From the NCBI GenBank assembly GCA_963805625.1, contig CAWDVE010000010.1, forward strand, positions 128,001-192,000: a stretch of 64,000 nucleotides of DNA. The letters run 5' to 3'. Numbering within the stretch: the first letter of the stretch is position 1; each line of letters starts with the position of its first letter. The notes under the pieces were generated by a model. It saw only the letters and a list, made by a program, of their open reading frames with translations, made no database searches and was not told the origin of the DNA. Shown piece by piece: positions 3,551 to 16,788 of this stretch. Origin of the DNA: an uncultured Candidatus Rokubacteria bacterium (GTDB lineage: Bacteria; Methylomirabilota; Methylomirabilia; Rokubacteriales; DASRDR01). Both the position numbers and the translations under genes were made by a program.

Positions 3551-4186
3551 ATGAAGATTGTCGCTGCGCTCACCGATCCATCCCAGGCCTCCTCTGCACA
3601 GGATCTCGGGGCAGATATCATCGAGCTCCGGTTCGATCTGATGGAGGACGATCCTCTGACCTGTGTACAGATATGCAGGGATGCCTGTCCATTACCCATA
3701 ATCGGCACGATCCGGTCGGCGCAGGAAGGCGGAATGTTTTTCGGGGATGCAGCAGCATGGCTGGAAAAGATATGCCCGGTCGTCCCGCTGGTTGATTATA
3801 TCGATATAGAGCAGCGGTTTGCATCCTGTGCATCTCAGGTCCGCGAGAGCGGGAAAATGATCATCGCCTCGCACCATACCGGTATGATGCTGTCCCTGCC
3901 GGAACTGTTTGCCCTTGAGCGGGATCTCAGGGCGTATGGCGACATCGTAAAGATTATCGTTACACCCCGGAACAAAGGAGATATCCTTGAGCTGCTCGAG
4001 TTCACCCATGCGATAAAAAAACCTGTCTGCACCGGCGTGATGGGTGCACAGTTCAGGTACGCCCGGGCAATCCTGCCGCTCTTTGGATCCGGGCTTGTAT
4101 ACTGTCACACCGGCACCAGGACAGCTGAAGGCCAGTATTCGGTGCAGGAATTTGTCTCCCTTATGAAACTGCTGAAAAACGGGTAG
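3551..4186 (+). CDS. aroD: Type I 3-dehydroquinate dehydratase
   Basis: GADIIELRFD, TIRSAQEGG, DYIDIE, IIASHH, DIVKII, MG...R and TAEGQ motifs of type I DHQase. Confidence 0.9.
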   Translation: MKIVAALTDPSQASSAQDLGADIIELRFDLMEDDPLTCVQICRDACPLPIIGTIRSAQEGGMFFGDAAAWLEKICPVVPLVDYIDIEQRFASCASQVRESGKMIIASHHTGMMLSLPELFALERDLRAYGDIVKIIVTPRNKGDILELLEFTHAIKKPVCTGVMGAQFRYARAILPLFGSGLVYCHTGTRTAEGQYSVQEFVSLMKLLKNG

Positions 4187-7214: not shown

Positions 7215-8201
7215 TCATCCATACTTGTCCTGTTCCAGTAAACAGTCCATCAATACCAGTGCCAGCATGGCCTCAGCGACCGGCAGGATACGCGGAACGA
7301 TGCAGGGATCGTGTCTCCCTCTCACGGAGATTCCAACCATGTGCCCGTGAATGTCCCGTGTCTGCTGGAGCTTTGTAATTGAAGGGGTCGGCTTGACGGC
7401 AATCCGGACAACAATATCCTGGCCGGTGGAGATGCCGCCAAGGATACCCCCGGCATGGTTGGACGAAAATCCGTCCTTTGTCATCTGGTCGTTGTTCTCG
7501 CTGCCGAACCTGCCTGCAACCGCAAACCCGTCACCGATCTCGACTCCCTTGACCGCACCTATACCCATCATGGCCCCGGCCAGCTGTGCATCCAGTTTTC
7601 CAAAGACCGGATCGCCAAGGCCGGCGGGACATCCCCGGGCAACAATCTCAGCGATACCTCCCACCGAATCTCCCGCCTCTTTTGCATTGAGGATTTCCTG
7701 CTCAATATCGGCAGGGGAGGTTTTACCGTGCACCGCTGAAATCCTGCTCCCGATGGTGATGCCCCGGGCTGAAAGATATTTCAGGGCAACTGCACCGGCA
7801 GCGACACGGCCGATGGTCTCGCGCCCGGAACTCCTTCCCCCGCCACGGTGATCCCGTATACCGTACTTTTCCTGGTACGTGAAATCCGCATGGCCCGGGC
7901 GGAATTTTTCACGGAACTCTTCATAATCCTTCGATTGCTGGTCCTCATTACGTACCATGAGTGCAATCGGGGCGCCGGTGGTTTTCCCTTCGAAAATCCC
8001 GGACAGGATCTCCACCCGGTCCTTCTCCTGCCGTGGTGAAGAGAGCGGGGATGTTCCCGGCCGCCGCCGATCGAGAAATGGCTGGATATCTGTCTCTGCC
8101 AGGTCCATGCCGGGCGGGCAGCCATCTATGATAACTCCGATAACGGGCCCATGGCTCTCACCAAAGGTGGTAATCCGGAAATTCCTGCCCAGTGAATTCA
8201 T
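7215..8201 (-). CDS. aroC: Chorismate synthase
   Basis: [32 protein letters not shown] and GRHDPC motifs; ATGA overlap with the aroE stop. Confidence 0.97.
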
Positions 8202-9587
8202 GCGATGAACTCCTTTACTTTTTCTGCCGGGACATCGATGCCGAAGAAGAGGTAAAACTGCTCCCGTGCCTGTTCGACAAACATCTCGGTTCCGCTGATT
8301 ATACGGCACCCCTTTGCCTGCGCTGCTTCAAGCAGCGGGGTCATCGGGGGTGTATAGACGAGGTCGAATACGGTGAGGTCTCTGTACAACTGGTCTTCCC
8401 GCAGGGGATTACGGGTGTCCGGCTGCATGCCGAGAGGGGTCGCGTTCACGACAAGATCCGGTTTTATACTGTCAAACTTATCCCAGGTCCCCCACGCACA
8501 GCCGAACCGTTCTGCGAGTTTCTTTGCGTTCTCCGGAGTCCGGTTCAGGATCGTCACGTCCATATCAAGATCTTTCATGGCATAGGCTGCCCCTGCCGCC
8601 ACACCACCCGCACCCAGGAGGACCGCCTTTGCACCTTTCATGGAGATGAGAGGTTTGCGGACCCCGAGCCAGTCCGTGTTGTAGCCGATGGCGGTTCCGC
8701 AGGCAAAGACGACCGTATTCACGGCCCCAATCTGCTGTGCCGCGTGCTCGTCAATCTCATCGAGGTACTGTATCACCTCATGTTTGAAGGGGATGGTTAC
8801 GGACAGTCCTTTGGCATCGATTGCACGGGCGACTTCCATGATCTCGTCCAGTTCAGGGTCCTCAAACCAGGTATAGTGGTAATTGAGGCGGTAATGATCA
8901 AAAAGTGCATTGAAGAGCCGGGGGCTCCTGCTGTGCGCACACGGGTATCCGGCAACTCCCATGATCCGCATCGTTGGATCTGTAGTTGCGCCGACAAGTA
9001 TGTCCTCAAGTTTTTTCAAGGGGGCCGGGGAAGCGCACGGTCCTGAAAAATTCAAGCGCCCTGTTCCGCTGAGCGGTGGTGGGAACTCCTTCGCGCAGCC
9101 GTACCAGGATAGTTTCTGCAGCCTGGACAGGCGAGGTCTCGCTGGTGTCCGTGCAGAAATCCGCGGAGGCGTAATAATTCCGCCTCCGGCGGTCCATCAT
9201 GGAAGCGATCTCTTCATGGAGGGGAAGGGTGGTGAGCGGGGGCCTGGGTTTTTTTATCAGCCGCTGTTCGATGGTATCGATGTCAGCTACCAGGAGCACG
9301 ATGGTACTTTCACGACGGAGATATTCCATGTTTTTTGGATCGCAGACAACACCTCCCCCCGTACTTACGATGGCATCTGCTGCGGGGAGCGTTGAGATTA
9401 CCTCACGCTCTGCACTGCGGAATCGTTCCTCCCCGTCATAATGGAAAATATCGGGTATGGAACGCCCGGTCCCTGACTCGATCAGATTATCGGTGTCAAT
9501 AAAAGGGACGTTCAGCCGCGATGACAGGATCCTGCCAATCGCGGTTTTCCCGGTCCCGCGAAAACCGGTCAATACAATTCTTCTCAT
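8198..9587 (-). CDS. aroE: Shikimate kinase-shikimate dehydrogenase fusion (AroK-AroE), apparent frameshift at about 9010-9035
   Basis: 9006-9587 encodes a P-loop kinase ([23 protein letters not shown]). 8198-9055 encodes AroE ([40 protein letters not shown]). The frames overlap across the homopolymer run CCCCGGCCCCCTTGAAAAAA. Confidence 0.85.
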
Positions 9588-10903
9588 TGTTGTATCCTCT
9601 CAAGTATATCCCAGAATCCCGGGAACGATTTATTCACGCACTCCGCATGGGTGATGGTAACCCCGCCGATTCCCATACCCAGCACCGCAAAACTCATCGC
9701 CGTGCGGTGGTCATTGGCCGGATCAATGGGAGCCCCGTGGAGTGGGGAGGGGCGGATGGTGATCCGGTCATGCCCGACCTCCACGTCCCCCCCGAGCGCA
9801 CGTAATCGTTCTGCAGGTACTCGTGATACGGTCGCTCTCCTTGAACTTTAAATGACTGATCCCGGTGATTGTCGAGGGTGTTGTTGCCATGGCAGCGACC
9901 ATGCAGAGCGTCTGGACGGTGTCCGGTGACGATGACATATCAACCGTGATCCCGCAGAGGTCTCCGGTCCTTTCTACCGTCACTGCATTGCCCGAACAGG
10001 TTACCGTACATCCCATAGACCTGAGTGCGTCAGGAAATCTCCGGTCACCCTGTACGGAATCCGGGTTCAGGTTTTTTACCGTTACCCTGCCGCCACAGAC
10101 CGCCGCAAGTGCGAAAAAATAGGAGGCTGACGAATAATCCCCTTCAACAGCATACGTCCTGCCCAGGTACTTCCGGTTGTTGTGTACAAAAAAGCGGGCA
10201 TATCCCTCTCGTTTGAAATCCGCTCCAAAAGCCTGCATCACCTCGAGGGTGATATCAAGATAGGACCGGGAGGATGGAGGGGAGGGGATGACAAGCTCAA
10301 CGTCTGTTTCTGCATACGGGGCAACAAGAAGGATCGAGGAGATGAACTGGCTGCTGATCGTGCCGTCAACAACAACGCTTCCTCCCTTAAGATCCCGCTC
10401 ACCCTGACCGGGGATATCCGTCATTTTTCACGTAATCGACAGTCGCCCGCTCACCCTGACCGGTGGATATCCGTCATTTTTCACGTAATCTGACTGATCC
10501 ACCGATACTCCGGAGTGCAGACACGAGCGGACCTATCGGGCGCTCCTGCATCCTTTCACTGCCGGTGAGGATTACCGGATTCCGGCAGAGAAGAGCAACG
10601 GACGCAAGAAGGCGAAGACTGGTCCCTGAGTTATCAAGGTCGAGAACGGTCGTTTCTTTTGTCGGAAACACGCCGTTGTTTCCCTGTATGATAATCCGGT
10701 CCGGTCCTTCCGTAATCGCCAGAACCCAGTGCTTTGAGGGCCTGTATCGTCAGCCGGGTATCTTCAGCATAGAGCGGATTGAGTATCGTCGTTGTACCGT
10801 TCCCGAGGGATCCGGTGAGGAGCGCCCGGTGCGTGTAGCTCTTGGACGGCGGTGCAGTGACCTCCACATCCACCGTCCCCTGGCGCCGGAGCGTGATGTT
10901 CAT
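9584..10903 (-). pseudogene. aroA: EPSP synthase (3-phosphoshikimate 1-carboxyvinyltransferase), split by several frameshifts and a 52-bp duplication; probably read errors
   Basis: Successive fragments carry PPSKSYTHRAL, NSGTSLR, RMQERPI, ISSQFISS, EGDYSSA, KESDRI, DHRTAM and KSFPGFW in different frames (10634-10903, 10474-10671, 9768-10424, 9584-9784). Confidence 0.88.
10394..10494. repeat. Imperfect tandem duplication (period about 52 bp) inside aroA
   Basis: CCCGCTCACCCTGACCGG(T)GGATATCCGTCATTTTTCACGTAATC(T)GAC at 10394-10440 and 10446-10494. Confidence 0.92.
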
Positions 10904-11691
10904 GTCGGTATCCCGAGTTTCCGGTAGCAGCCCAGTTCCCTGACCTCAGTAATGGACTTAAGTTCGTCAAGCGCCTCGCGGGTATCTGCCGACCATGCAT
11001 AGTCAAGGAAGAACACATAATTTCCCATGCCCCGTTTGGACGGACGCGACTCAATCCGGGTAAGATTGATATTCCGCCGTGCAAAAACCCCGAGCAGGTC
11101 ATACAGGAGGCCGGCCCGATCCGTGCTTGGGTCGATGACGATACTGCACTTCTGTGCTTCGTCCGCACCGGGGTGCGTGCGGGAAACCAGGACGAACCGC
11201 GTTGTATTGGATGCATTATTCTCGACATTTGAGAGAATAACGGGGATTTTGTAGAGCGATGCCGCTGATACGGAGAGTATTGCCCCTGCGTTGGGAGTTT
11301 TCCGTGCTTCAAGAGCGCTGGAGGCATTACTGCTGGTATGGATGACCGGCACTCCCCATTCCCGTATCCGTTCACTGCACTGTTCGTGAGTCTGCGGGTG
11401 GGCATAGACCACCCTCATCCGTGAAAGAGGGACTCCGGATGCAAGATGGTGGTGGATGGGCATGAATATCTCCGCGGTAATAAACAGGGGGAACTTCAGC
11501 AACCCGTCGAGGGTCTCACCCACTCCCCCGGCTTCAGAGTTCTCGAGGGGCACCAGCCCGTCTCCTTCACCCGAGGCGACGGCAGCAAAGATATCATGGA
11601 TGGTCGATGCCAGCCGGATATCCGGCCATTGCATCCGTAGGGCAAGCTCGTGGGAGAAGGTCCCCTGCGGTCCCAGCGTGATAATGGTCAT
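10900..11691 (-). CDS. pheA: Prephenate dehydratase with ACT domain
   Basis: LGPQGTFSH, PLENSEAG, NTTRF and INLTRIESRP motifs. Confidence 0.95.
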   Translation of the reverse strand: MTIITLGPQGTFSHELALRMQWPDIRLASTIHDIFAAVASGEGDGLVPLENSEAGGVGETLDGLLKFPLFITAEIFMPIHHHLASGVPLSRMRVVYAHPQTHEQCSERIREWGVPVIHTSSNASSALEARKTPNAGAILSVSAASLYKIPVILSNVENNASNTTRFVLVSRTHPGADEAQKCSIVIDPSTDRAGLLYDLLGVFARRNINLTRIESRPSKRGMGNYVFFLDYAWSADTREALDELKSITEVRELGCYRKLGIPT

Positions 11692-12512
11692 CGGTTCACC
11701 ATGTATTCGATCAGGGCATCGGTCGTTGTCATTCCCTCTGCGGCCCAGGCACCAAAATGCCTGCTGTCTGCAACAAAAAATTCCCGGAACAGTTCAGGCT
11801 GGTCTGATGCTACAATCCGGCTGAGATCTCCGGCAGCGGATGTGCAGGCAGAGAGGACTTCCGGTACATACGGGTTCAGCTGGAGAATATCCGCGTAGAG
11901 CGACGGGTCCTGCGATAGCAACCGCCCGACAAGGGCCAGTTCGATCTGGTAGACCGGGCTGGTAAATGCCCGGGTAGTTTCGATATCGATACCCAGGCGC
12001 CGGACTGAATCTGCCATGCAGAGGGTAACAAAGTGCGTGAGACCCTGGACAACGGCCATCATCCGGTCATGGGCTTCGGGAGTCGTGATGGTGCATTCTG
12101 CACCTTCTGCCCTGAGGATGGCAAGCAGCCCGCTGAGTGTGTCGTCACGGGCACGTGCCGGGCAGACGATGATGGTCTGGTGCCGGAGGGAACTGACGGT
12201 CGGCCCGAACATCGGGTGCAATCCTATGACCTGGGCCTTTGATCCCAGCATGGCTTCTACCGGACGCACCTTCAGCGAGGTCAGGTCGCACAGGAGCTGG
12301 TCCTCTGAGAGCAGGGGGGCGATCTCCTGTATGACCCGGACCGTGTCGCGGATGGGTACCGATACCATGACAAGATCGCATTCTCCGGCAAGTGCAGCCG
12401 GAGTGAGTGCCGTGGACCGCCCGGCCACCTCCACCTCGTATCCCGCCCGCTGTAAAATCCCGGCAAAGATCGCCCCCATCTTTCCGGTGCCGCCAATAAT
12501 TCCTGCCTTCAC
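11688..12512 (-). CDS. tyrA: Prephenate dehydrogenase
   Basis: GIIGGTGKMG Rossmann motif, DLTSLK, HPMFGP, HDRMMAVVQGLTHF; GTG start at 12512. Confidence 0.93.
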   Translation of the reverse strand: MKAGIIGGTGKMGAIFAGILQRAGYEVEVAGRSTALTPAALAGECDLVMVSVPIRDTVRVIQEIAPLLSEDQLLCDLTSLKVRPVEAMLGSKAQVIGLHPMFGPTVSSLRHQTIIVCPARARDDTLSGLLAILRAEGAECTITTPEAHDRMMAVVQGLTHFVTLCMADSVRRLGIDIETTRAFTSPVYQIELALVGRLLSQDPSLYADILQLNPYVPEVLSACTSAAGDLSRIVASDQPELFREFFVADSRHFGAWAAEGMTTTDALIEYMVNR

Positions 12513-12516
12513 GGTT

Positions 12517-13504
12517 TCACTTCTCAACAATGGTCTCTTTGACCGCCATGCCAAAATGCCTGCCGCCTGCAAGGGTGCATCCCATGATACGGTCCCCGAC
12601 AGCGAGGTTCACGACCGATATCGCATCTCCTCCGGGTGCAACCAGGCGGATGGTCTCGGCATTCTGGAGGATCAGGCTGACCTTTGCAGCCGGCTGCCTC
12701 CGCTTCCACCAGGAGCAGCGGACGCCGCTCGATCTTGGTCCTCCCCACAATGGCTGAATGTGCCTTTCCCGCTGCATCGGTGACAAGCACCTTTCCCCCA
12801 ATCGCAAGGTCGGAGAGATACGCCGTCTTTCCATCCGGCAGCAGGATATAGGCGTGGACGGCACCGGCATTTACCCGGAACGGGCGTGGAGCAACGTACG
12901 GGTTTTCCAGCGTCTCGGCATGGACAAGGAGCATGGCAGAGGATGTATTTCCCATCAGCATTCCTTCACCCTCCGGGAGCATCGAGCAGGTATCGACACA
13001 GACCCGGTCTCCCATGCCCACCGGCTGGATTTTTGTGACCGTGAAGGGGATGAGGCCAAGGTTCACGGCCGGTGATTTGACGAGGGATGCCACTTCCCTG
13101 ACCGTTGCCGGGTCGGTCGTCTTCAGCAGGATTCCGGCTGTACCCTTTTCGAGCACGTGGAGGGCAATCTCTGCTTCCTTTGCACTGGTAACCCGGGCGA
13201 TGATCCGGTCCGACTGGGCGACGAGGTTTTCCAGCGGGATGACCGTCCAGTCGCTGGTGGTCACGATGATGAATTTTTTATCACGGATACCGGCAGCAAG
13301 GTTTTCGCTTGCCTTGTCCGTGATCATGCATTCCGCGATATCGGGACCGATTTTCAGGTCACCGTCCGGAGCAATGGTGGTAATCCTCCCCAGTCGCCGG
13401 ACCGCTCCCGCATCATCGGTGACAATGGCATCCGCACCGCTCTCGATCGCCGTCGTTGCGATCTCCTTGTTCCACGGGCGGATATCGACCCAGAACTGTT
13501 TCAT
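12517..13504 (-). CDS. 3-dehydroquinate synthase II (archaeal AroB'), single frameshift near 12690
   Basis: WTVIPLENL, GDRVCVDTCS, RPFRVNAGAVHAY and GRTKIERRPLLL; the C-terminus ILQNAETIRL...GRHFGMAVKETIVEK is in a second frame. Confidence 0.9.
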
Positions 13505-14286
13505 CCCGTGTGCCCCAGCGCCTGTTCCGGATCACTATTGTCATGGACGACTGCGCAGAGGGCTTTGACAAAAGACGTTGTGTCATCGCGCTGGAAGGAG
13601 TTCCTTCCCACGCAGACACCTGCCCCACCGACATTGACAGCGTCGCGGATGATCCTGAGGGACTCGAGGTCACCGGTCTTCTCGCCGCCGGCAATGAAGA
13701 CAGGTACCGAACAGGCCCTGACGATCTTCCCGAACGCCTCGGGATTGCCCGGGTAATTGGTCTTGATCATGTCCGCGCCCAGTTCTTCTGCCACCCGGAC
13801 CGCATGCCCGACCGACTGTGCTGAGAAGGAGTCGATCCCCTTGCCACGCGGGTAACACATGATAAGGAGCGGCATGCCCCAGCGGTTGCAGTCCCGTGCA
13901 ACATTGGCGCCGATCTCCAGCATCTTGGACTCGTTGGGTGAGCCGAGGTTGATGTGGATCGAGACCGCATCGGCGCCGAGCGCTATTGCCTCTTCCACGG
14001 TGCAGACCTGCACCTTGTCGTTCGGGTCCGGGTTGAGCGACGTGCTCCCCGAGAGGTGGATAAACAGGCCGATGTCGCGGCCGTGCTTCCGGTGCCCGCG
14101 CTTGACGAGCCCCTTGTGGAGCACGATCGCGTTTGCGCCCCCGTCACTCACGTCCGAGATGACTTTTGTCATGTCCAGCAGTCCTTCAATCTGTCCCATC
14201 GAGAACCCGTGGTCCATCGGTACGATGACCGACCGGTTCGTGTTCCGGTTCATTATCCGTTCGATCCGTATCTCTTTTCCAATCAT
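13501..14286 (-). CDS. DhnA-type class I aldolase, ADH synthase (AroA') family, paralog 2
   Basis: IVPMDHG, HLSGSTSL, GADAVSIHIN, YPRG, ELGADMIKTNY and GRNSFQ motifs. Confidence 0.9.
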   Translation of the reverse strand: MIGKEIRIERIMNRNTNRSVIVPMDHGFSMGQIEGLLDMTKVISDVSDGGANAIVLHKGLVKRGHRKHGRDIGLFIHLSGSTSLNPDPNDKVQVCTVEEAIALGADAVSIHINLGSPNESKMLEIGANVARDCNRWGMPLLIMCYPRGKGIDSFSAQSVGHAVRVAEELGADMIKTNYPGNPEAFGKIVRACSVPVFIAGGEKTGDLESLRIIRDAVNVGGAGVCVGRNSFQRDDTTSFVKALCAVVHDNSDPEQALGHTG

Positions 14287-14289
14287 GGT

Positions 14290-15080
14290 TCACACCTTCA
14301 GCAGTTCCATTGCCTCATCAACACCCTTCCCGTGATGCACGATACATGCCGCAGCCCTGACAAACCGGTCCGGCATCCGGTGCTGGAAGGCATTCCTGCC
14401 GATCGAGATCCCGGCTGCACCGCCGGCCATCGCACCTTCTATCAGCTCAAGGGTTGTGCGGTCATCGGTCTTTGAACCTCCGGCCACCACGACCGGTACC
14501 GGGCACCCCCGGGTCACCTCGCGGAAACTCTCCGGGTCACCGGTGTACACGGTCTTGACAATATCGGCGCCCAGTTCTGCTGCCACCCGTGCGGCGAGCT
14601 TGACCTGCTCGAGATCATTTGAGGTAGCGATGTTCTTCCCCCGGGGTACATCATCGCGAGGAGCGGCATGCCCCATTCCATGCATTCCACGGAAACGGCA
14701 CCAAGGTCTGCGAGCATCTTGGCTTCTGACTCGGCCCCGATGTTGACATGCATCGACACCCCATCGGCGCCCATCTTCAGGGCGTTTGTCACGGAATTGA
14801 CGAGCACCTTTTCGTTCGGGTCCGGTGCGAGCATCGTGCTTGCCGACAGGTGCAGGATTAACCCGATATCCCGTCCGCCCTGCCGATGTCCGTGGAGCGC
14901 CAGGCCCACATGGCCGATCACGGCATTTGCCCCGCCATCGGCGACAAGGTTGACGGTCTGCCCCATATCGATGAGGCCCGGGATCGGCCCGTTCGATACC
15001 CCGTGATCCATCGGGACGATGATGGTCTTCTTCGTATTACGATTCATGATCCGTTCCAGACGAATTTCCTTTCCTCTCAT
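14290..15080 (-). CDS. DhnA-type class I aldolase, ADH synthase (AroA') family, paralog 1; first gene of the operon; 1-nt deletion near 14645
   Basis: IVPMDHG...HLSAST...LAMMYP in one frame and RGKNI...[11 protein letters not shown]...GRNAFQ in another; adding one C to TACCCCGGGGG restores YPRG. Confidence 0.9.
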
Positions 15081-15094
15081 AATAACAACAACAA

Positions 15095-15143
15095 CCTCCC
15101 TCCGCATTCACACACGTTTTTATCAGTCGTGCAAACCAGAGGG
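15095..15143 (-). promoter_or_regulatory. Hairpin between the leader ORF and aroA' that pairs with the Shine-Dalgarno region (candidate attenuator)
   Basis: CCCUCUG (15143-15137) pairs with CGGAGGG (15104-15098); GUUUGCACG pairs with CGUGUGUGAAU; GGAGG motifs at 15103-15099 and 15099-15095. Confidence 0.55.
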
Positions 15144-15147
15144 CTTA

Positions 15148-15327
15148 TCAATACCAGTAATAAAACCGGTAATAAAACCGGAAATAAAAGCCAAAGAAGC
15201 TAAAAAAGCCGGAGACGCGTGACCATGCGGTCCCGACATTCAAAGACTGTTCAGAAACGATTTCACTGATGCAGCGGGAGAGCGAGCTATTAGAGATAAA
15301 GACATTCACGGGCGAAAAAACCCTCAT
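15148..15327 (-). CDS. Candidate aromatic amino acid leader peptide (59 aa)
   Basis: MRVFSPVNVFISNSSLSRCISEIVSEQSLNVGTAWSRVSGFFSFFGFYFRFYYRFYYWY, then TGA TAA; 15 of the last 19 codons are F/Y/W; ends 67 nt before the aro operon start. Confidence 0.75.
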   Translation of the reverse strand: MRVFSPVNVFISNSSLSRCISEIVSEQSLNVGTAWSRVSGFFSFFGFYFRFYYRFYYWY

Positions 15328-15376
15328 GAATGCGGTGGCACTCTTCCTGCATGGTTATTTTGTATGGGAGTATTGG

Positions 15377-15384
15377 TATTTAAG
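15377..15384 (-). promoter_or_regulatory. Putative archaeal TATA box for the leader/aro operon
   Basis: CTTAAATA on the minus strand, about 25 nt upstream of ATG 15352; BRE not obvious; very close to the contig junction. Confidence 0.45.
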
Positions 15385-15394
15385 GGTGTGTGCT

Positions 15395-15410
15395 AATGCT
15401 TAGTCCGGGT
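15395..15410. other. Junction between an archaeal moderate-GC sequence and a very high-GC bacterial sequence
   Basis: Abrupt change in composition and codon usage; the bacterial ORF ends exactly at the boundary; no mobile-element features. Confidence 0.9.
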
Positions 15411-16788
15411 CGTCGGGACGCTGGGCGAACTGAAGGCTCAGCCCGTAGCGCCCCGGCTGGCGGCGACCGCGCTCTGACGGGAGCGTCGCAGTCGGGGCCA
15501 GCGCGGACGGGGCGCCGGCATCAGTCAAGGCCGCCGGTGGCGTGTCCGGAGCGTCCCGATCGCCGGCCGCTTCCCCGGATTGGCCCGCCGGGCCGGACAT
15601 GATTTCGGCTTCGGCCGGCGGCGCTTCCGCGTGCACAGGCGTGAGCGACCCCAGCAGATCGCTCCCGACGTCCCCGTCGCCCAGTCGCCCCGTGGGCAAC
15701 CGTTGCTGCCCGCCGGCCCGCCGCTCGACGAGTGAGGCAAGCAGGGGGAAATCCTCGGCGAGCTGCCCGAGCACCGACTCCAGATCCCGTTCGACTGGTC
15801 GGGCCGCGCGGCGCCGCGCGTGGTCTCCAGGGTCCGCGAGGTCGCCCCAGACGTCGAGCTGGGCGGTGACCGCTTCCTGGATCGCCTTCCGGTACGCGAG
15901 ATACACTGCGCCGCGGACGCCAACGCGGATGAAGTCGGCCTTGTTGAGGGTGAGGCACTCCGCAAGGGCAGGGGCCTCGATCAGGCCCCCGACCCGGTCC
16001 GGCGTTGCCGGCGTCAGTCCGAGCCAGTCCCAACCCCGCTTGATCACCTTGCCGAAGGTGCTGATCGCCAGGCCGCGTTGCTCTTCGGGTAGCGGCATTC
16101 TGTCGTGGACGAGGTAGCCCGCCGCGGACGGCTTCCGCTTCCGCGCCAGACGGACCGCGATGGGTGCGGACTCTATCCCTCGCCAGCCTTCGGGCGTGAG
16201 CCGAGAGCCGTTGAGCGCGAAGCCGACGCCGTGCGGATAGTGCGCGACCAGGATGGCAGCGAACCCAGGATCGAAGAGCGGCTGGAAATGTCGGCGAAGT
16301 GTAGCCTCGACGTATCCCGGGTCGAGAAGGGGCGAGAGCGGGTTTTGCAACCGGAGCCGAACGGCCGTCCCTCGACGGACGACGAGATCAGGCGGCGAAA
16401 TCCACCGCCAGGGCGCCCGCTGCCGGGAGGTGAGCCCCCAGGCCGTCGCGACGTGAACGGCGCCCCGACGGGTCTCGGTCACGACCTGCTCCGAGACCAG
16501 GAGCCCGAGCTTGATCCCGACTCCGGCGAAGCCGATGCCCTGGCCACGCGTCTTGCTCGTGGCCGCGATGTCATGGTAGCGCGCCAGCTCGCGGCGCCGC
16601 ATGCCCTGGCCGTCATCGACGACGGTGAGCGTTGCCGTCGCACGGTCGGTCAGGAGGCCGATCTCGGTGGCGCCGGAGTCGAGCGCGTTCGCCAGGACCT
16701 CCGTGAGGATCGTCTCCTCGATCGCGCCGGGATATGCGTCCCGGAGGTCCTCGAGGAGATGCAGGAGATCGACCCGCGTCTCGCCCAT
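15400..16788 (-). CDS. GHKL (HATPase_c, Hsp90/MutL/MORC-like) ATPase, probably C-terminally truncated at the junction
   Basis: EVLANALD (N box), DDGQGM (G1) and GIGFAGVGIK (G2); the stop codon sits on the junction. Confidence 0.8.
   Translation of the reverse strand: MGETRVDLLHLLEDLRDAYPGAIEETILTEVLANALDSGATEIGLLTDRATATLTVVDDGQGMRRRELARYHDIAATSKTRGQGIGFAGVGIKLGLLVSEQVVTETRRGAVHVATAWGLTSRQRAPWRWISPPDLVVRRGTAVRLRLQNPLSPLLDPGYVEATLRRHFQPLFDPGFAAILVAHYPHGVGFALNGSRLTPEGWRGIESAPIAVRLARKRKPSAAGYLVHDRMPLPEEQRGLAISTFGKVIKRGWDWLGLTPATPDRVGGLIEAPALAECLTLNKADFIRVGVRGAVYLAYRKAIQEAVTAQLDVWGDLADPGDHARRRAARPVERDLESVLGQLAEDFPLLASLVERRAGGQQRLPTGRLGDGDVGSDLLGSLTPVHAEAPPAEAEIMSGPAGQSGEAAGDRDAPDTPPAALTDAGAPSALAPTATLPSERGRRQPGRYGLSLQFAQRPDDPD

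Follow-up and report, generated by a model that had tools for sequence, protein, structure and literature searches.

The operon for aromatic amino acid synthesis in Methanomicrobiales is preceded, as sequence comparison shows, by a conserved leader written in two reading frames: a promoter-proximal ATG opens a short frame-0 ORF, two slip-compatible sites lie on the way into a stop-free +1 frame, and a tract of Phe, Tyr and Trp codons in that +1 frame is followed by a hairpin. The best overall explanation, to which we assign a probability of about one half, is that ribosomes would slip by +1 when Phe or Tyr is scarce, stall in the tract and open the hairpin ahead of the first operon gene.

The leader came to notice in a window of 64,000 nucleotides (the whole stretch of DNA that was analysed). 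NCBIfam and Pfam name the nine genes downstream of it, in agreement with the names given in an earlier note on this DNA: two ADH synthases, 3-dehydroquinate synthase II, prephenate dehydrogenase, prephenate dehydratase, EPSP synthase and the last three shikimate/chorismate genes (Table 1). The sole shikimate step absent from the operon, type I 3-dehydroquinase (aroD), is encoded 3 kb past it on the opposite strand (3551-4186, +). The contig that contains the window (C10) is a chimera, with about 50% GC and a Methanoregula-like character at positions 1-143400 and, past that point, bacterial DNA with the 70% GC that the other 27 contigs also show; contig C25, too, is low in GC at its end. In the window the junction falls at about 15403, with archaeal DNA below and 70% GC bacterial DNA above, 50 nt from the leader locus, and it cuts a palindrome just above the promoter. 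Three genes of the archaeal part are split, namely aroA'-1, aroB' (12517-13504) and the EPSP synthase gene (9768-10903), and at two places, 14642 and 15146, the window lacks one base that public contigs have; the base absent from aroA'-1 is present in the contigs of runs X1, X7 and X12. The eight public RNA runs used (out of 17 listed), of which small shares in the form of contigs were available, confirm the assembly errors and are silent on start, strand and level. A deep contig in run X4 that extends upstream of the promoter was set aside. Because the local assembly is unreliable, the analysis of the leader was based on relatives.

Table 1. Features of the aromatic operon and its leader, in window coordinates
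Feature	Position	Strand	Remarks
Right half of TGCTA-N4-6-TAGCA palindrome, possible regulator site	15391..15403	-	cut by chimeric junction
TATA-like box (TTAAATA)	15377..15383	-	
Frame-0 upstream ORF	15290..15352	-	20 codons, from putative leaderless ATG 15352
Predicted 5' hairpin pairing the internal RUG	15302..15333	-	shift site 1 in loop
Predicted +1 shift site 1, GGT TTT TTC	15314..15322	-	P-site YUU, A-site Phe; YTT-TTY in 132/132
Predicted +1 shift site 2, TGT CTT TAT	15296..15304	-	P-site YUU, A-site Tyr; YTT-TAY in 130/132, CGT in other 2
+1 frame ORF (59-codon ORF of the earlier note)	15148..15327	-	predicted shifted product 67 aa from ATG 15352
Phe/Tyr/Trp codon tract, U-rich	15151..15210	-	F/Y/W in 15/20 codons
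Hairpin, from just past leader stop to start of aroA' Shine-Dalgarno	15098..15143	-	
Shine-Dalgarno core GGAGG of aroA'-1	15095..15099	-	overlaps hairpin base
aroA'-1 (ADH synthase), first operon gene	14290..15080	-	start ATG 15080; split at ~14642 by 1-base assembly error
Operon remainder: aroA'-2, aroB' (split), tyrA, pheA, EPSP synthase (split), shikimate kinase, shikimate dehydrogenase, chorismate synthase	7215..14286	-	

Scanning of species genomes yielded 80 loci, with titles mostly of Methanoregula and some of Methanolinea, Methanoculleus and Methanospirillum, and a search across the order found the aroA' gene in 250 of 301 genomes, from which 30 loci and 60 more distant upstream regions were taken. 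The resulting 171 upstream sequences comprise 148 distinct ones, 142 of which were scored; left out before the counts were four that were too short, L013, which is truncated, and L142, which the ATG rule missed and which was later read by eye as in frame. Two scored leaders have broken frames (L033 and L040), leaving 140 open leaders. The tract was absent from 20 of 20 aroA' homologues outside the order, taken from the 326 genomes with a match in a sample of the phylum, and the leader with its aromatic tract is conserved across Methanomicrobiales. The end of the tract lies 32-127 nt ahead of aroA'. The longer spacers (104-127 nt) occur in L070, L071 and L074 and in L005, L006, L084 and L087; L070, L071 and L074 have a second Shine-Dalgarno (SD) sequence and ATG behind the hairpin, ahead of the aligned start. 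L005, from a record titled Spirochaetia bacterium, has a Methanoregula-type aro locus and nests among Methanoregula in the tree, so that it is likely misbinned.

The earlier note had described a 59-codon minus-strand ORF (15327-15148), with 8 Phe, 6 Tyr and 1 Trp among its last 19 codons and a stop 67 nt ahead of the aroA' ATG, and had read it as a leader of cognate codons. The ORF, its composition and its distance from aroA' are as described, and so is the first of the two stops (TGA TAA) with which it was said to end. The second stop probably results from an error of assembly: in three out of four runs the contigs have an extra base behind 15146, and the stop is absent from the relatives shown. 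None of 100,000 base shuffles of the final 60 nt reached the 15 F/Y/W codons that stand among the last 20. The tract carries direct repeats of 12 and 9 nt; Pfam returned no match for the 59-aa ORF, and Rfam returned none at E<=1 for window positions 14900-15500. Across the last 15 codons of the 140 open leaders, F/Y/W make up 56% in the tract frame, against 21% and 11% for the alternative frames, and they exceed shuffled sequence in all 140. Both synonymous codons are in use; the equally U-rich Leu codons TTA and TTG account for only 2 of 2100 codons. Because the F/Y/W codons are frame-specific, use both synonyms and nearly exclude TTA and TTG, the tract is under codon-level selection, which supports the earlier note's reading of it as a translated leader of cognate codons. 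A conserved F/Y/W C-terminus with synonymous variation, which that note had proposed to look for in relatives, is present across the 140 open leaders, and the outcome that it had named as contrary, a T-rich tract kept while the frame is lost, is not what they show. Codons ending in U are favoured in the tract far more than in the operon genes. A Trp codon stands within the last six codons in 89 of 140 leaders and at a shift site in none, and Trp appears to be a minor input. It is very likely that this is a functional aromatic-codon leader.

The start codon given for the ORF, ATG 15327, is probably wrong. An earlier ATG (15352), overlooked at the time, lies about 31 nt behind the TATA-like box and opens a frame-0 ORF of 20 codons, relative to which the tract is in the +1 frame. 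Every scored leader has a TATA-like box. In 133 of the 140 open ones this box begins 29-35 nt ahead of the ATG, a figure to be read with the fact that the rule for picking the ATG itself used the presence of a TATA-like box. Of the 140 leaders, 61 have a complete TGCTA-N4-6-TAGCA palindrome no more than 80 nt from their ATG, upstream of the TATA box in Methanoregula and between TATA box and ATG in L072, L080 and L115; its left half is present in relatives and in run X1, continuing from the right half in the window. The palindrome is possibly a transcription-factor site that acts on top of leader control. A mid-leader UGCAU (window 15260-15275, minus strand) is also conserved, and could pair with the 5' AUGCA (15348-15352) or with an AUGCA ahead of the SD.

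Read from the promoter-proximal ATG, the tract falls in the +1 frame, without intervening stops, in 132 of the 142 scored leaders (including L007 and L036, whose tracts are partly scrambled). These 132 have 28 distinct lengths, all 1 mod 3, and a frame-0 ORF of 14-26 codons that stops 1-13 codons beyond site 2; past that site, frame 0 meets a stop in 132/132 and frame +2 in 118/132. Frame 0 holds two copies of a six-codon unit, the first ending in xGY-YUU-Phe and the second in xGY-YUU-Tyr. The A-site codons are TTC in 96 and TTT in 36 leaders at site 1, and TAT in 118 and TAC in 14 at site 2, with frame-0 variation that is synonymous only. In a 68-row tree the P codon shows at least 11 changes of its first base at site 1 and at least 4 at site 2, always between C and T, while none of the 37 conserved fourfold-degenerate columns of aroA' lacks purines. 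Since this base is a fourfold site of the +1 frame, yet purines are excluded, its restriction to C/T counts against selection on the +1 frame only; C or U at this base is what the tRNA requires in order to re-pair on UUU one base on. Among ordinary [F/L][F/Y] dicodons of the operon genes, 184 of 1024 are slip-compatible. The bacterial prfB motif, YTT_TRA_C, has the same P-site YUU as the leader sites (PMC3711429). A -1 shift and polymerase slip at the sites were considered too and rejected, as the CTT variants allow neither.

Ahead of the P codon stands an SD-like GUGA at register 14, the one most frequent among 645 native starts; a further SD-like match, at register 9, occurs only in the long type of site 1. 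The RF2 frameshift uses an internal SD at shortened spacing, and such shortening was not found as a general feature of the shift sites. Because the GUGA stands at native start spacing rather than at the short spacing of RF2, no known stimulator is present at these sites. A 5' hairpin is predicted to pair the internal RUG with a probability above 0.7 in 84 of 132 leaders (median z -1.3, which is weak).

Eight scored leaders, together with L142, carry the tract in frame with the 5' start, against 132 of 141 intact leaders in which it is in the +1 frame. Methanospirillum hungatei, to judge by L068, is likely of the in-frame type. Compared with the nearest +1-type leader (L162 in both cases), the in-frame leader L145 differs in frame by a single missing base at site 2, and L080 by a single missing base at site 1; both encode directly what a +1 shift would make. 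L145 and L080 are close kin and may represent one or two events, and the tree left the deep forks that bear on independent origin of in-frame leaders open. Taken as a whole, entry of ribosomes into the tract by a +1 shift is likely.

The same cassette was found at enzyme genes of other amino acid pathways. In a comparison of 64 distinct starts of the leuA/cimA family, 30 of the 34 starts of the leuA-like paralog carry a YUU with a Leu codon next to it (L238 and L239 are in frame, and L244 and L245 have a variant site, ATT-CTA), and all 30 starts of the cimA-like paralog, of the ilvB-linked type, carry a UUU with an Ile codon behind it. We provisionally take the latter to be cimA-like from its position before ilvB; NCBIfam and PDB matches did not settle LeuA versus CimA identity. 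The sites lie 8-17 codons ahead of the D-T-T-L-R-D motif, with the enzyme in the +1 frame, and the enzyme genes (leuA-like L171, L173-L176 and L240-L266; cimA-like L180-L185 and L267-L286) begin with a short frame-0 ORF. At the Ile sites a slip from UUU to UUA re-pairs only two of three bases. The enzyme frame holds no ATG, GTG or TTG before the D-T-T-L-R-D motif in 18 of 30 leuA-like and 6 of 30 cimA-like genes, and has an RTG-type start within 75 nt upstream of the site in 10/30 and 19/30, respectively. The start codons of leuA/cimA-like genes in the order are likely mis-called. Genome G282 combines an in-frame aro leader (L142) with shift cassettes at both of its leuA/cimA-like genes (L175, L180).

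The earlier note's proposal to scan other amino acid operons thus had a mixed outcome, with cassettes at leuA/cimA-like genes and neither cognate leader nor cassette at the thrC, trpB-type, cysK-type and hisG starts of five complete genomes. Four of these five genomes (L199, L204, L205 and L208) share a promoter box, CAACAATGTATA, ahead of the trpB-type gene, with the start close behind and no leader; the Trp genes may instead answer to a DNA-binding regulator. A degenerate-pattern search of the five genomes recovered the aro and cimA-like sites, and the rest of its matches were near the reversed-pattern control (39 vs 39). An architecture scan of 1.9 Mb gave 296 matches, of which 240 were Phe/Tyr, 24 Leu and 15 Ile, the remainder being scattered without recurrence.

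Two other accounts of how the tract is read, or of why it exists, have to be set against a shift. The tract ORF could be translated from the internal ATG or GTG (15327 in the window) by internal initiation or re-initiation, as the earlier note held in treating the 59-codon ORF as the translation unit, and the short ORF would then be a second sensor or a by-product. All 132 aro leaders do have a +1-frame RTG ahead of site 1, the +1 peptide over both sites (VFSPVNVFI-like) is conserved, and a good many leuA/cimA-like genes have such a start as well. However, the RTG has no SD ahead of it, stands a mere 7 nt from the 5' ATG in leaders of the short type, is predicted to be paired, and belongs to the SD-like GUGA, which four in-frame leaders keep with the +1 frame unused. 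The frame-0 stop within 1-13 codons of site 2 is not tied to a start, the exclusion of purines at a fourfold site of the +1 frame is left over, and a ribosome stalled in the short ORF would hold expression back on starvation rather than promote it. The strongest reason for preferring a shift is that the enzyme-frame start is missing at many leuA/cimA-like genes (18 and 6, as above), which for the aro leaders, with their ever-present internal RTG, is support by analogy. With the promoter-proximal start in the other frame, the evidence favours +1 entry, and internal initiation is quite improbable. The other account dispenses with a translated sensor and takes the tract for a U-rich RNA or DNA element, a short tandem repeat, an assembly artefact or a product of RNA-polymerase slippage on T runs. 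The direct repeats in the tract and the chimeric, error-rich contig would suit it, but the frame is kept over 28 lengths, F/Y/W exceed shuffled sequence in 140/140 leaders with TTA/TTG at 2/2100, and the tract recurs in 139 other distinct open leaders. Polymerase slippage requires T runs longer than 3-4 T, and the CTT sites, which hold only 3-4, are too short. A non-translated reading appears largely refuted and has very little probability left.

How the leader would act on the operon is less clear-cut. A hairpin runs from the leader stop to the SD region of aroA' in nearly all leaders, with sequences that differ by lineage; its outer pair starts -6 to +5 of the leader stop in 135 of 140 (-6 being the edge of the folded fragment), with a median z of -1.9. 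In 55 distinct rows of the Methanoregula type, 82% of cells are paired and 9 of 15 pairs show two-sided change. Covariation exceeded 500 of 500 shuffles and all six slid controls, with the qualification that two of the five measures stayed within the range of the shuffles (78 and 165 of 500) and that related genomes are not independent. Pairing of the core SD was no higher than in shuffled spacers (0.60 vs 0.63; higher in 65 of 140). With the last codon masked as by a ribosome, the start region became cheaper to open by a median of 2.3 kcal/mol in 62 leaders (every second leader of suitable size), and in 36 of these the gain was 1.5 kcal/mol or more; masking 4 or 8 codons before the stop had no overall effect. 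In the window itself, masking the last codon changed the cost from 12.8 to 12.3 kcal/mol, and masking the frame-0 stop lowered it to 7.6, which is the wrong direction. These folding tests weakly support a translational output. Given the rest of the model, output through the hairpin has slightly better than even odds. The bacterial form of attenuator that the earlier note had in mind does not fit, as the leader is not followed by a terminator hairpin with a U-run: the longest T run in the last 22 nt, between leader and aroA', is three or fewer in 134 of 140. The terminator-like match on this strand sits inside the tract (2 matches, 0.7 expected). Output could also be by transcription termination, with the tract itself as the site of a termination factor. 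This would account directly for control of nine genes and would agree with the weak folding results, and a termination-factor site would fit the preference for U-ending codons, although these could instead be chosen for slow wobble decoding. It leaves a conserved hairpin that reaches the ribosome-binding site unexplained, U runs of at least six occur in only 42 of 140 leaders, and the leuA/cimA-like cassettes need no tract. Termination, though less likely, is the main alternative to the hairpin.

In the favoured mechanism, that of the slip and the hairpin, the transcript would begin at the 5' ATG, where ribosomes would start and read frame 0. When charged tRNA-Phe or tRNA-Tyr is scarce, they would slip by +1 at the YUU-Phe or the YUU-Tyr site, presumably in dependence on starvation, enter the Phe/Tyr/Trp tract and probably stall there; the stalled ribosome would melt the hairpin that covers the ribosome-binding site of aroA', and the operon would be turned on. 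When amino acids are plentiful, both sites would be read in frame 0, ribosomes would stop after about 20 codons, the tract would not be reached and the hairpin would stay closed.

Several known systems share parts of this design. The E. coli leaders pheL, trpL and thrL have runs of cognate codons and sense more than one amino acid; they resemble the present leader in combining a short ORF with a cognate codon run ahead of a biosynthetic operon and in its predicted multivalent sensing, whereas here there is no terminator hairpin with a U-run and entry would be via a conserved shift site. A Met-Trp minigene at Methanothermobacter trpY has reportedly been proposed as a sensor. Besides prfB, antizyme is another +1 frameshift system. 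In bacterial prfB (RF2; PMC3711429), a P-site YUU re-pairs on UUN, a slow A-site gates the shift, a short ORF is followed by a +1 ORF, and the product feeds back on itself; in contrast, the A-site here is a sense codon for the pathway's amino acid (Phe, Tyr, Leu, Ile) instead of a stop, the SD-like motif is at native spacing and, at the aro operon, what a shift would yield is a leader and not the enzyme. The mycobacterial Ms5788A (10.1101/834739) is a leaderless short ORF with a cognate codon run, first in an amino acid operon, whose stalled ribosome is proposed to free a downstream ribosome-binding site. Its run is in frame with the 5' start, while here the tract is in the +1 frame in 132/141 and in frame in 9; its codons are polycysteine, and the present leader is archaeal, aromatic and known from sequence alone. 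In ermCL, shifted ribosomes translate into the spacer and unfold the mRNA so that the main gene initiates, but the trigger is a drug (a ketolide), not aminoacyl-tRNA supply, and there is no cognate tract; the same source calls a frameshift in pheL incidental (PMC5009743). Programmed frame changes in archaea, as covered in a review, comprise the -1 shift of fucA1, magnesium chelatase and viral shifts, with +1 listed only for a haloarchaeal virus; the one cellular case is a -1 shift, and the cellular cases are not amino acid sensors (PMC8211752). The portions examined of Tufail et al., 2024, Weixlbaumer et al., 2021 and Gelsinger et al., 2020 describe no attenuator, and a full-text literature search, with most subscription papers outside its reach, found no description of this element or of an archaeal cognate-codon leader. 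The leader would be best described as a leaderless short-ORF attenuator entered via an RF2-like slip, which fails a defining feature of each family.

Frameshifting at starved codons has been studied for decades as an error. How far cells make use of it is called unclear in a 2016 review (PMC5009743). It is probable that Methanomicrobiales possess an amino acid regulon built on programmed +1 slips at starved codons, in which a cassette of xGY-YUU-cognate codon with an SD-like anchor gates the aro leader and, directly, the synthesis of LeuA- and CimA-like enzymes. In three gene sets the codon in the A-site fits the pathway concerned, and the natural in-frame variants are built-in controls. If true, it would be the first case in which a programmed frameshift serves feedback control by reading the supply of aminoacyl-tRNA, as well as the first cellular +1 shift in archaea, and it would bring leader-peptide control, that is, amino acid control read by the ribosome, to the archaea.
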